From assembly GCA_020722065.1 (NCBI GenBank), contig DYLK01000001.1, positions 16,387 to 80,386 of the forward strand: DNA of 64,000 nt, given 5' to 3'. Under the pieces are notes generated by a model, which made no database searches, was not told the origin of the DNA, and saw only the letters and a list, made by a program, of their open reading frames with translations. Made by a program: the position numbers and the translations under genes. How positions within the stretch are numbered: the stretch's first letter is position 1; each line of letters starts with the position of its first letter. The stretch is from Melioribacter roseus (lineage in GTDB: Bacteria > Bacteroidota > Ignavibacteria > Ignavibacteriales > Melioribacteraceae). Positions 12,103 through 20,293 of the stretch are shown piece by piece.

Positions 12103-12444
12103 TTATTTCTTAAAACTTTCTACAGCCTTTTCAACAGAATCATAGTTTTCGAAAATTGTAATTAATTTTGTTATAAGAAGAAGCGAATTAATTTTTTCTG
12201 TCGCATTTGCCAAAACTAATCTACCTTCAGCGTTTTTTACTGAAGTAAAAGCACTTATTAACATTCCAAGTCCTGTACTATTCATAAATTTAACATCAGC
12301 TAAATCTACAATTATATTCTTTTTATTATCTGCAATATTTGACTTAATTATTTTATGGAATTCATTCGTTTCGACACCACCCATAACATTTCCTTTTAAT
12401 TCGATAACGACAGCTTCATATTTTTCTGTAGTTTTGATTTTCAT
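12103..12444 (-). CDS. STAS-domain anti-sigma-factor antagonist (RsbV/SpoIIAA-like), copy 1
   Basis: The track ORF extends to 12471. I prefer ATG 12444 ([18 protein letters not shown]), which has GGAGTA 8 nt upstream. It carries the conserved phospho-serine context [18 protein letters not shown] (compare RsbV DSTGLG). It ends 11 nt before purA. Confidence 0.85.
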
Positions 12445-12600
12445 TTGTTTTACTCCACGTTTATTGTTCATTATGATAAAGAAAATTAAAGAGTATAAAT
12501 TTCATAATCAAATTTTTTCTATTAAATTTATACAAGTGATTTATAAGACGTAAATAATTAAGAAAGTTCAAACAAATTCAGAAAACCAACGTCAAAATTT

Positions 12601-13185
12601 TTGGAAGAAATAAATAATAATATAGTTTTTGATGAAGAAACCGAAAAAGATTTTGCATTAATTCGAGAATTTAATTCTGGAAAAGAGCGTTCTTTTAGCG
12701 ATCTAATTCTACGACATCGCGATAAAGTGAGAAACTTATGCTATATAACACTTGGCGATTCGGATTACGTTGATGATGTTATCCAAGATGTTCTTGTAAA
12801 CGTTTATCAGAATCTTAACTCTTTTCGGTTCGAAGCAAAATTCTCAACTTGGCTTTACAGAATAACTGTTAACAAATGCCGAGATTACCTTCGAAAAAAG
12901 AAGATAAGAAAGATTTTCATTGCACAAGAAGATGATTATAATTTTGTTTCTTCTGATAGAAAACATTTTGAAAATTTTGACTTAGGTGTAATATTGAATA
13001 AAGCAATAGCTAAATTACCTGAAAAATTGAAAGAACCTTTAATTTTGCGAGATGTTGAAGGCTATAGTTACAATGAAATTTCAGAAATGCTAAATGTTGA
13101 AATTGGGACAATTAAATCAAGAATTTTCAGAGCACGCGAAACGCTTAAAGCTTTACTAAAACCTTACCAAGAAAACAGAATGTAA
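12601..13185 (+). CDS. ECF-type (group 4) sigma-70 family RNA polymerase sigma factor
   Basis: 194 aa with only regions 2 and 4. Region 2 is DVIQDVLVNVYQNLNSFRFEAKFSTWLYRITVNKCRDYLRKKK. Region 4 is LKEPLILRDVEGYSYNEISEMLNVEIGTIKSRIFRARETLK. TTG 12601 is the only start-like codon between the in-frame TAA at 12559-12561 and region 2. Confidence 0.9.
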   Translation: MEEINNNIVFDEETEKDFALIREFNSGKERSFSDLILRHRDKVRNLCYITLGDSDYVDDVIQDVLVNVYQNLNSFRFEAKFSTWLYRITVNKCRDYLRKKKIRKIFIAQEDDYNFVSSDRKHFENFDLGVILNKAIAKLPEKLKEPLILRDVEGYSYNEISEMLNVEIGTIKSRIFRARETLKALLKPYQENRM

Positions 13186-17720: not shown

Positions 17721-17722
17721 AT

Positions 17723-20293
17723 ATGGAAAGATTAAATAATTTTTTGACAAAACTGAAATATTACATTTCGCCCACATTAACGGTTTTTCTTGTCATTTTT
17801 GGATTTATTCAAATTTATTTTACACTTTTTGTAACTCCTCGCTCAAATGATGAATGTTTGTGGATTGAAAAAAAAGTCTCTGAAGATAGTTCGTACATTT
17901 ATTTTTACAAAGTAAAACAAAATGGTGTTACTTGGGAAGCGGGAATTCGAGATGGCGATATTTTTCAATCTATAAACGGGCAGAAAATTAAAGATGTTCG
18001 ACAGGCATCTTACATTATTGATAGTTTGAAAAGTGGCAAAATGGCAAACTACACTTTTTCCCGTGATGGAAAAGAGTACACAACAAAAGTGAGAATGAAG
18101 AAATTAATAAACTTTCCTAGCCTTGCCTTGGAAGTGTATTCGCTTTTATGGTTAATTGTTGGTTTCATTGTCTATCGTTCAAAACCAAGTAGTGTAGTGC
18201 AAAGTAAATTTTTTAACTTAGGTGTTTTTTTAGTCCTTTATGCTGGGCTTTCTGTTTTAACAATTGCAAGTACAGTTCCAAACCCGATTATGAATGAGCC
18301 AAAACTTATTATTATTATCGGTTTAACGGGAACATTTGCTTCTGCGCTAATTCCATCGGCAATTGTTGAATTATTTTTGCTTTTCCCATTAAAATTCAAA
18401 ATAATTGAAAAGCGAATTACTTCAATTTTATTGAAATCTTTCTCATTACTTTTAATTTTAGTATATATTTCCTTAAAATTCTTTATTAATCTTGAATTTC
18501 TTATTAAAATTGAAGGAATGTACTATTTAGCTGAATTAATATTTTCGCAAATTGTTAGGTTAAGTTTCATTGTTTCACTTGTAATTGGGTTTATAACTTT
18601 TACATATTCTTATTTTAAGATAAAAATTAAAGCTCAAAGAAAACCACTTACTATAATTCTTTTTGCATATTTAATAGGGATTTTTGGATTATTCTACGTT
18701 TCTACTTTAGCTCAAGTTTTTGCGGAAACTGTGTTCAATTCACCTGAACATTACATGCCGATAATTTTAATAGCTTTAATTCCAATTTCATTTGGTTATT
18801 CTATTTTTAGATATTCACTTATGGATGTTACAGAAGTTGTAAAGAATACAGTTTTATATGTACTTACTTCGATTCTTTTGGCTGGAATTTACTTCTTTTT
18901 TATTATTTTCTTGGGAGCTTCAATAATTTCGGTTTTGGGTCCTGAATATCAGGGATTAATTATTGGAATAGTTTTCATAATGTTTGTTATCCTATTCCAA
19001 TCAACAAAAGAAAAAGCTGATGAATTCTTAACTAAAACATTCTTCCCCGAAAAATTAGCTTTTCGAGAAGTACTTTTAAAGTTTGATAGCGAAATTTCTG
19101 GCATTCTGAATGTAAATGAAATATTATCCAAAACAGGAATTATTTTTAAGGAAAAATTAGATATTTCAGCTTTTGGAATTGGTTTAGTTGAAAAGAATAT
19201 TTTGAAATTCCCACTAATAAACGGAGAACAATTATTCGAAGGTGAAATTTCAATAGATTATAATACAATTCAAGAAAAAGTGGCAAATCAAAGAAAAATG
19301 ACATCAAATACTATGATTGAAAAAGTAGATTTTAGAACTATTTTCGGGAAATTTGGCGAAAATCTGATAGAAAATGGCATATATACAGTATTTCCATTAC
19401 AGACAAATAATGAGATTCTTGGCTTTCTTTTTCTTGGAACGAAACAAAAGGGAAGTGGTTTTTCTGACAATGAAATTGAGATTTTAACTGCTGTGGTTAA
19501 TCAAATATCAATTGCAATTAAAAACACACAGTATTATGAAAATGAAAAAGAAACATTGCTACTTAATATTGATTTAGAAAAAGCAAGAAATATTCAACAG
19601 AATTTGCTACCTAATGAAATGCCAAAAATAGCTGGATTTGAAATATTTGGGAAAATGATTCCAGCAAAATGGGTTGGTGGAGATTATTTTGATATTATTA
19701 AAATATCAGAAACTAAATTTTATGTTGTAATTGGCGATGTTTCGGGGAAAGGATTTTCTGCTTCGTTCTATATGTCAAGATTGCAAACAATGGTTCAACT
19801 TTTAGCTTCGCAAGAAATTTCTCCAAAGGAAATGATTATTCAATTGAACAAATCAATGTCTAAAATGCTTGATAAAAGCTATTTTATCACTTGTTCAATT
19901 GCTCTTTTTGATTCAGAAAGTAGGAAAATTAAGTTTGTTCGTGCGGGGCACACTCCTTTAAAAGTAAATCAAAATGGTGAAATAATTAATTATTTACCAA
20001 AAGGTTTAGCGATTGGATTAGAAAGAAATGATGATTTTATAGAAAAGATTGAAGAAATTGAAATTCCATTGCAAAATAATTCAACTTATTTCTTTTATTC
20101 TGACGGAATTGAAGAAGAAATGAATCTTGAAAATAAGAATATTGGGGAAGAATTTATTGATGAAATCCTTCGTAGTGGACAAAATGAAAAAGTGGAAGAA
20201 ATTTGGCAGAAAATTGAAACACAACTTTCGGATTTCAGACAAAAATCGCAACAACATGATGATATTACAGCCGTAATCGTGCAATATCGATAA
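17723..20293 (+). CDS. PDZ - polytopic membrane - GAF - PP2C/SpoIIE serine phosphatase
   Basis: 856 aa. TM1 is followed by a PDZ-like segment (WEAGIRDGDIFQSINGQKIKDVRQASYIIDSLKSGKMANYTFSRDGKEY). Then come about 9 hydrophobic helices and a GAF-like region (ILGFLFLGTKQKGSGFSDNE). The PP2C motifs are VGGDYFDI, GDVSGKGFSAS, FYSDGIEEE and QHDDITAVIV. Confidence 0.8.
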   Translation: MERLNNFLTKLKYYISPTLTVFLVIFGFIQIYFTLFVTPRSNDECLWIEKKVSEDSSYIYFYKVKQNGVTWEAGIRDGDIFQSINGQKIKDVRQASYIIDSLKSGKMANYTFSRDGKEYTTKVRMKKLINFPSLALEVYSLLWLIVGFIVYRSKPSSVVQSKFFNLGVFLVLYAGLSVLTIASTVPNPIMNEPKLIIIIGLTGTFASALIPSAIVELFLLFPLKFKIIEKRITSILLKSFSLLLILVYISLKFFINLEFLIKIEGMYYLAELIFSQIVRLSFIVSLVIGFITFTYSYFKIKIKAQRKPLTIILFAYLIGIFGLFYVSTLAQVFAETVFNSPEHYMPIILIALIPISFGYSIFRYSLMDVTEVVKNTVLYVLTSILLAGIYFFFIIFLGASIISVLGPEYQGLIIGIVFIMFVILFQSTKEKADEFLTKTFFPEKLAFREVLLKFDSEISGILNVNEILSKTGIIFKEKLDISAFGIGLVEKNILKFPLINGEQLFEGEISIDYNTIQEKVANQRKMTSNTMIEKVDFRTIFGKFGENLIENGIYTVFPLQTNNEILGFLFLGTKQKGSGFSDNEIEILTAVVNQISIAIKNTQYYENEKETLLLNIDLEKARNIQQNLLPNEMPKIAGFEIFGKMIPAKWVGGDYFDIIKISETKFYVVIGDVSGKGFSASFYMSRLQTMVQLLASQEISPKEMIIQLNKSMSKMLDKSYFITCSIALFDSESRKIKFVRAGHTPLKVNQNGEIINYLPKGLAIGLERNDDFIEKIEEIEIPLQNNSTYFFYSDGIEEEMNLENKNIGEEFIDEILRSGQNEKVEEIWQKIETQLSDFRQKSQQHDDITAVIVQYR

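Follow-up and report, generated by a model that had tools for sequence, protein, structure and literature searches.

What keeps an extracytoplasmic function (ECF) sigma factor in check when the genes that follow it encode the parts of an RsbW-type partner switch? The question is raised by a locus in a 64,000-nucleotide stretch of contig DYLK01000001.1 (the whole of this 64-kb stretch is called the window below), from an AT-rich (~30 % GC) member of the Ignavibacteriota. The locus is a conserved Ignavibacteriota operon encoding an ECF sigma factor, a membrane PP2C phosphatase, a STAS protein, an RsbW-like kinase, a GAF-PP2C phosphatase and a PDZ-PP2C phosphatase; a second STAS gene is divergently oriented. 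The best explanation of this composition appears to be that the RsbW/STAS/PP2C module has taken the place held by a zinc-binding anti-sigma factor (ZAS) next to related ECFs. Comparative sequence analysis makes it likely that the sigma factor and the partner switch form one regulatory circuit. The further step, in which the RsbW-like kinase would directly sequester the ECF sigma factor, is more tentative and is given a little less than an even chance.

A preliminary description of this DNA had listed seven open reading frames (ORFs) in the locus. The ORF listing contains all seven, with exactly the same coordinates, and the domain calls made for them were reproduced by a Pfam/NCBIfam profile search of all seven proteins. 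Domains were assigned with Pfam and NCBIfam; topology was taken from hydropathy analysis. The genes and the two promoter-like motifs of the locus are the following:

12103..12471, minus strand: STAS1; STAS domain (Pfam, 1.9e-13), single-domain protein of the anti-sigma antagonist type
12547..12568, minus strand: promoter-like motif of ECF type, (T)GAAC-N15-CGTC, divergent and oriented towards STAS1
12571..12593, plus strand: ECF-type promoter-like motif AAC-N16-CGTC, its end 7 nt short of the sigma gene's TTG start codon
12601..13185, plus strand: ECF (group 4) sigma factor, 194 aa, σ2 and σ4 only; heads the operon
13189..15273, plus strand: membrane-anchored SpoIIE/PP2C phosphatase, 694 aa; PP2C at residues 502-691
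15284..15634, plus strand: STAS2, the antagonist paired with the kinase; STAS domain (1.5e-14)
15635..16066, plus strand: RsbW/SpoIIAB-like GHKL serine kinase, 143 aa, candidate anti-sigma factor; HATPase_c_2 (PF13581, 5.6e-29)
16059..17720, plus strand: cytoplasmic PP2C phosphatase, 553 aa, with a probable GAF input; SpoIIE domain
17723..20293, plus strand: PDZ-GAF-PP2C phosphatase, 856 aa; PDZ_2 and GAF_3 above cutoff, SpoIIE domain

Judging by its domains and relatives, the sigma factor is a genuine ECF (group 4) protein. It matches Pfam Sigma70_r2 and Sigma70_r4_2 only, has no r3 or r1 domain, and scores 102 bits against the TIGR02937 sigma70-ECF profile (cutoff 42.9). All 18 relatives in the Protein Data Bank (PDB) are ECFs, with SigW (5wuq), RpoE (1or7), AlgU (6in7) and Mycobacterium tuberculosis SigE at the top. 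The ECF-type call made earlier is borne out by these results, as the protein does not cluster with SigB/SigF. A group 3 identity was rejected on the basis of domain content and PDB matches. The sigma factor has many orthologs, with identities of 52-68 %, among the Ignavibacteria, the Melioribacteraceae and Stygiobacter.

Hardly any DNA separates the six plus-strand genes: four of the junctions are gaps of 3, 10, 0 and 2 nt, the remaining one is an 8-nt overlap, and terminator-like sites within this run do not exceed chance expectation. The stop codon of STAS2 immediately abuts the start codon of the kinase gene, which, together with the 8-nt overlap between the kinase and GAF-PP2C genes, suggests that STAS2, kinase and GAF-PP2C are translationally coupled. 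TTG start codons are called for three of the seven genes, namely those of the sigma factor (12601), the kinase (15635) and the GAF-PP2C (16059). No further sigma, STAS or PP2C paralogs were found in the 64-kb window.

Besides the window, 14 distinct orthologous loci were recovered (L001-L006, L081, L082/83, L084, L085, L088, L171, L172). Eight of these reach far enough downstream for gene order to be judged, and in all nine loci, the window included, the order ECF-(X)-PP2C-STAS-RsbW-PP2C is kept, X being an additional gene described below. The order persists although identity drops to 54-65 % for the ECF and to ~40 % for the kinase, and the orthologous contigs that end early agree with it as far as their sequence extends. 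As background served 153 ECF loci of other phyla, none above 45 % identity, of which 85 extend 3 kb or more downstream; not one of the 153 has a STAS, RsbW or PP2C neighbour. A metagenome scan with patterns from the ECF alignment, which proved too generic, added just one orthologous locus (L088); the other 79 loci were assigned to the background. Chance clustering was rejected as an explanation, given the conserved order in the orthologs and its absence from the background loci. Conservation of the neighbourhood thus extends past the source genome, as seen in nine of nine evaluable Ignavibacteriota loci. Of the "seven-gene hub" proposed earlier, the ECF-PP2C-STAS-RsbW-PP2C core is kept throughout, whereas the PDZ-PP2C and STAS1 are variable and an extra gene X is present in about half of the lineages. 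The PDZ-type phosphatase is found in L001, L002, L004, L081, L084, L085 and L088, is absent from L082 and is missing in Stygiobacter; 13 of the 14 orthologous loci have STAS1 upstream of their ECF gene, L084 being the one without it. No other sigma genes were found in the orthologous loci. The closest locus to that of the window is L001 (30.6 % GC over 20.6 kb), on contig DYSW01000006.1 of a metagenome-assembled genome labelled "Melioribacter roseus", with an ECF protein 95 % identical to that of the window. The type strain of M. roseus has a GC content of 41 % (PMC3534657), and the species label of the L001 genome looks wrong in view of this difference.

What is expected next to a sigma factor of this kind can be read from its nearest relatives outside the phylum, which are 34-37 % identical to it. 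All seven that were tested have a gene with an HxxxCxxC motif directly downstream, and the products of these genes match Pfam zf-HC2 above the gathering score in six cases and weakly in one. In the window this slot is filled by the membrane PP2C. The latter protein has at least six transmembrane (TM) helices in residues 77-280, followed by a cytoplasmic linker and the PP2C domain, and residues 1-471 have no Pfam match. An anti-sigma domain (ASD) would not fit into its cytoplasmic N-terminus, which measures only ~17 aa. No ORF with an N-terminal, ZAS-type HxxxCxxC motif was found in the 64-kb window, nor did Pfam reveal a zf-HC2/ASD protein in locus or window, so the earlier claim that a classical anti-sigma partner is lacking here stands. 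An anti-sigma factor may be encoded elsewhere in the genome.

Gene X directly follows the ECF gene in six loci (L006, L082, L084, L088, L171, L172), for example at these positions:

L082:10602-11777: gene X
L084:10703-11923: gene X
L006:1948-3111: gene X

The product of X is 387-406 aa long. A short N-terminal tail and a single TM helix precede ~350 residues that lie outside the membrane; the cytoplasmic portion comprises ~8-20 residues. It matches no Pfam or NCBIfam family. Its 21 homologs are all unnamed or hypothetical, and every one with an organism label is from Ignavibacteria. An AlphaFold2 model (predicted local distance difference test score 70, moderate) gave no PDB fold match (best E 0.18). 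The window and seven other loci have no X, nor any remnant of it. X was rejected as a classical anti-sigma factor on account of its too short cytoplasmic tail, the lack of a family or fold match and its absence from the window.

The catalytic and phospho-acceptor residues of the partner-switching proteins are intact. The preliminary description had considered all catalytic motifs intact and both STAS proteins to have kept the phosphorylatable Ser before GLG. A motif scan and an alignment with SpoIIAA support both statements: the Ser column is invariant, and Ser65 of STAS1 (in NSTGLG) and the corresponding residue of STAS2 (in SSAGLG) align with Ser58 of SpoIIAA. The N, G1 and G2 boxes of the kinase are intact (with E47/N51/H55, D82xG and GGLG). 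RsbW is its best NCBIfam match, its best named relatives are RsbW and SpoIIAB, and the nearest solved structures are those of B. subtilis RsbW (6m36, 2.5e-14) and then SpoIIAB (1til/1l0o). In helix α1, the ECF-linked kinases share the group-specific residues S12 and T14 as well as an invariant Arg at the position of R20 in SpoIIAB. These α1 residues may be a weak hint of a lineage-specific partner, one that fits sigma-factor binding and STAS binding alike. A weak likeness to the ATPase domain of the RsbW-like kinase (29 % identity over 100 aa) is also seen in the C-terminal region of a 1172-aa ORF (266-3784, minus strand), which is probably a large sensor kinase and is adjoined by a 1309-aa ORF (3834-7763).

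All three phosphatases have a full-length SpoIIE domain (1e-36 to 1e-43) with the four metal-binding motifs GDY(Y/F)D, DVSGKG, (T/S)DGI and DDIT. Identity among the three PP2C domains is no more than ~30-32 %, and for each of them a separate ortholog is found at other loci, which indicates that they are old paralogs rather than recent duplicates. The GAF input suggested earlier for the 553-aa enzyme is less clear than the enzyme itself: while the PP2C assignment holds, GAF_3 scores 24.9 bits and so stays below its cutoff of 27. The GAF matches of this phosphatase's orthologs are weak as well. In the third phosphatase a first TM helix is followed by a PDZ domain (residues 52-123), nine more TM helices, a GAF domain and the PP2C domain (663-855). 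In keeping with the periplasmic ligand proposed earlier, the PDZ domain sits between TM1 and TM2 and hence outside the membrane; hydropathy places the GAF and PP2C domains on the cytoplasmic side.

Promoter-like motifs connect the sigma factor to these genes. The intergenic DNA between STAS1 and the ECF gene is poorly conserved (51 % mean column identity); in its alignment across nine loci, CGTC is invariant, with AAC 16 nt before it. Upstream of the sigma gene, AAC-N16/17-CGTC is present in 11 of 11 loci and ends 3-28 nt before the start codon. The distance from CGTC to the start is 7 nt in the window and 3-13 nt in most orthologous loci. We take this motif to be the classic ECF promoter signature, as in the SigW, SigX and SigM consensus. 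Its position points to positive autoregulation and to a sigma mRNA that is probably leaderless, or nearly so, with a non-ATG start codon. A divergent motif, (T)GAAC-N15/16-CGTC, faces STAS1 in seven loci (the window, L001-L005 and L085) and was not found in L006, L081, L082 and L084. It lies 76 nt upstream of the annotated ATG of STAS1 (12471) and ~100 nt upstream of Met10 (12444), which, judging by the orthologs, is probably the true start. The promoter motif occurs five times in the 64-kb window, against 8.4 occurrences expected by chance, and the only intergenic copies are the back-to-back pair between STAS1 and the sigma gene. As these conserved ECF-type motifs tie the sigma factor to both transcription units, it most likely transcribes its own operon, with the kinase, STAS2 and the phosphatases, plus STAS1.

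Two more minus-strand genes lie behind STAS1:

10823-12091, minus strand: purA (adenylosuccinate synthetase), behind STAS1
9612-10823, minus strand: orphan HisKA/HATPase_c histidine kinase, behind purA

STAS1, purA and the histidine kinase gene are packed as one apparent unit, with an 11-nt gap and then a stop/start overlap, and the trio is conserved in L081, L082, L085 and L171. Possibly, purA and the histidine kinase gene are co-transcribed with STAS1, and they may or may not be part of the circuit. Because the unit stands behind an ECF-type promoter in the clade of the window, a purine-biosynthesis gene may be ECF-controlled.

A mechanism can be proposed from these elements, in which the binding partners and the nature of the signals are inferred. 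In the resting state, the RsbW-like kinase would hold the ECF sigma factor and keep the conserved serine of STAS2, perhaps also that of STAS1, in the phosphorylated state. A signal could reach any of the sensor phosphatases, its point of entry being the multi-pass membrane domain, the GAF domain in the cytoplasm or the PDZ domain outside the membrane, upon which the phosphatase concerned would dephosphorylate STAS-P. The unphosphorylated STAS protein would then capture the kinase, and the released sigma factor would transcribe its own operon from the AAC-N16-CGTC promoter and, in loci of the Melioribacteraceae type, also the divergent STAS1(-purA-kinase) unit. The outcome would be positive feedback on the sigma factor combined with renewed synthesis of its inhibitors.

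Sequestration by the kinase is suggested by the consideration that an autoregulated sigma factor needs a co-made inhibitor, and among the operon's products only the RsbW-like kinase belongs to a family in which anti-sigma factors are known. The RsbW/SpoIIAB-type kinase would then be the bona fide anti-sigma factor of the ECF, binding σ2/σ4 in a way that departs from the σ3-centred SpoIIAB-σF interface, and the locus would represent an undescribed class of ECF regulation and the probable general stress switch of the Ignavibacteriota. Taken together, this is put forward with reserve, as a reading that falls slightly short of being probable. Several observations weigh against it. The five nearest kinase homologs outside the Ignavibacteria all belong to STAS-RsbW-GAF/PP2C modules without a sigma gene in the surrounding 6-8 kb, one such sigma-less module (L087) has a STAS protein that shares 49 % identity with STAS2, and a rough neighbour-joining tree fails to separate the ECF-linked kinases from one homolog of a sigma-less module. 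The family's only structurally known sigma interface, that between SpoIIAB and σF (1L0O), involves σ3, and ECFs are without σ3. A clash point in the SpoIIAB-σF interface is Asp148 (PMC7340262). In Bordetella, where BtrS shares a locus with BtrU, BtrW and BtrV, the anti-sigma factor is BtrA, and BtrW is not a negative regulator (PMC7498569). Lastly, the orphan membrane protein X follows the sigma gene in about half of the lineages. Much of this would also fit a locus in which sigma factor and partner switch are co-expressed without being partners. The output of the module would then be a non-sigma target, reached via unphosphorylated STAS or via the kinase, along the lines of proposals made on BtrUVW of Bordetella, SypA/SypE of Vibrio and RbaVW of Rhodobacter, and the sigma factor would be controlled otherwise, by an anti-sigma factor encoded elsewhere, by X where it is present, or by transcription alone. 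The sigma-less modules in which the closest kinase and STAS homologs from other phyla reside have three genes, the Rhodobacter precedent is one in which no sigma partner was found, and X fills the anti-sigma slot in six loci. An autoregulated ECF without an inhibitor in its own operon would, however, be unusual, no ZAS-type ORF was found in the 64 kb, and X, with its few cytoplasmic residues and no fold match, is absent from eight loci, that of the window included. The tight and invariant operon linkage across the phylum points to a shared function, and co-expression without partnership is regarded as rather unlikely.

Two other readings of the kinase were considered. The kinase could control another sigma factor elsewhere in the genome, of the group 3/FliA type or a primary one, with the ECF merely giving the module stress-inducible expression. 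By the textbook, RsbW/SpoIIAB kinases act on group 3 sigmas (PMC4598750), an action on σ66 has been reported for Chlamydia RsbW (PMC4552016), and Ignavibacterium album has 16 sigma factors as well as flagellar genes (PMC3362086). No second sigma gene is present in the window or the orthologous loci, though, and control of a distant sigma factor would leave the conserved co-transcription with the ECF unexplained, which makes this improbable. Alternatively, the GHKL kinase and the PP2Cs might set the phosphorylation state of the ECF itself, without sequestration, by a logic like that of Ser/Thr-kinase-dependent sigmas of the ECF43 type. Such phospho-control of an ECF by a kinase is reportedly the subject of the PknS/EcfK paper. 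Phospho-dependent ECFs differ from the usual acidic region 2.2, and the sigma factor of the window, unlike them, retains the acidic residues (DYVDDVIQD). Several Ser/Thr residues are invariant among the sigma orthologs, and kinase phospho-control of ECFs is described in PMC7826278; yet the kinase family is known to phosphorylate STAS proteins only, and two STAS substrates with the canonical serine are at hand. Phosphorylation of the sigma factor is regarded as very improbable, and sequestration by the RsbW-like kinase, tentative as it is, is retained as the proposed function.

The combination of an ECF with an RsbW-type switch apparently has not been described within the searchable literature, although all its parts come from known families. 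In reviews, RsbW-type switching is confined to group 3 sigmas, and the single known ECF partner switch is that of NepR/PhyR (PMC4598750). The control modes that reviews give for ECFs are anti-sigma factors, C-terminal extensions, Ser/Thr-kinase phosphorylation, transcriptional control by two-component systems and the PhyR/NepR switch. No ECF controlled by an RsbW/STAS/PP2C module was found in the searchable literature, the coverage of which largely excludes subscription papers and the ECF Hub descriptions. The main text of the 2021 ECF classification makes no mention of a STAS, RsbW, SpoIIE, phosphatase or Ignavibacteria context, a review of STAS-only proteins does not mention ECFs, and the genome papers on Ignavibacterium and Melioribacter do not discuss the module.

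In bacterial signal transduction, ECF sigmas count as one of the largest protein families. If the kinase sequesters the ECF, this would be a new control mode for these sigma factors, and the RsbW/SpoIIAB family would have a way of binding that is independent of σ3. Some of the many "orphan" partner-switching modules in Gram-negative phyla would thereby gain a candidate type of target, and the locus would offer a sigma switch that is compact, orthogonal and multi-input, which is of interest for synthetic circuits. Should kinase and sigma factor not bind each other, the locus is still a clear phylum-wide case of a partner switch driven by an ECF.

Among known systems, the σB and σF modules of B. 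subtilis (RsbU/P-RsbV-RsbW-σB and SpoIIE-SpoIIAA-SpoIIAB-σF) are built from the same three protein families, the motifs of which are intact here. They likewise have the STAS-kinase gene order with adjoining stop and start codons and several alternative input phosphatases, and the sigB operon, too, has the sigma gene co-transcribed with the genes of the putative regulators, under a promoter of the type that belongs to that sigma factor. Here, however, the sigma factor is an ECF with σ2 and σ4 rather than a group 3 protein, so that the σ3-based SpoIIAB-σF interface cannot apply. It is also the only sigma factor in the operon, the window and the orthologous loci, none of which offers the group 3 target of an RsbW/SpoIIAB-type module. 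The sigma gene is the first of the operon instead of the last, there is no RsbT/stressosome or RsbX, and two of the phosphatases are polytopic membrane proteins.

In sequence, the sigma factor is closest to those of the class I ZAS pairs SigW-RsiW, RpoE-RseA and AlgU-MucA. With these it shares a promoter of the AAC...CGT type, apparent autoregulation and a gene for a membrane protein directly downstream. The product of that downstream gene differs in that zf-HC2 and any other anti-sigma domain are missing from it, its cytoplasmic N-terminus being 17 residues long, and the locus has an RsbW/STAS/PP2C set in the stead of an ASD protein. The alphaproteobacterial EcfG-NepR-PhyR system likewise couples an ECF to a phosphorylation-driven partner switch, and the system described here may, like it, be a lineage-wide general stress regulator. 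The proteins of EcfG-NepR-PhyR are wholly different, comprising NepR, an anti-sigma factor, and PhyR, a sigma-mimicking response regulator; no PhyR-like or NepR-like protein, receiver domain or second sigma-like domain was detected in the block with Pfam/NCBIfam.

The btr locus of Bordetella likewise combines an ECF sigma factor (BtrS) with a PP2C, an RsbW-like kinase and a STAS protein. Its genes are interspersed with unrelated ones, whereas those of the window form one compact operon. A dedicated secreted anti-sigma factor, BtrA, binds BtrS, and BtrU, BtrV and BtrW are all positive factors for secretion, none of which sequesters BtrS. No BtrA-like gene, nor any other extra ORF, lies between or beside the seven genes of the window. 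The same STAS-kinase-GAF-PP2C core recurs in sigma-less STAS-RsbW-GAF/PP2C modules (for example L086, L087, L168-L170; Vibrio SypA/SypE and Rhodobacter RbaVW), and it is there that the kinase and STAS2 have their closest relatives in sequence. No sigma gene lies near these modules, and where their output is known it is a non-sigma one, whereas in the Ignavibacteriota the core is embedded in an ECF operon across a phylum-level lineage.

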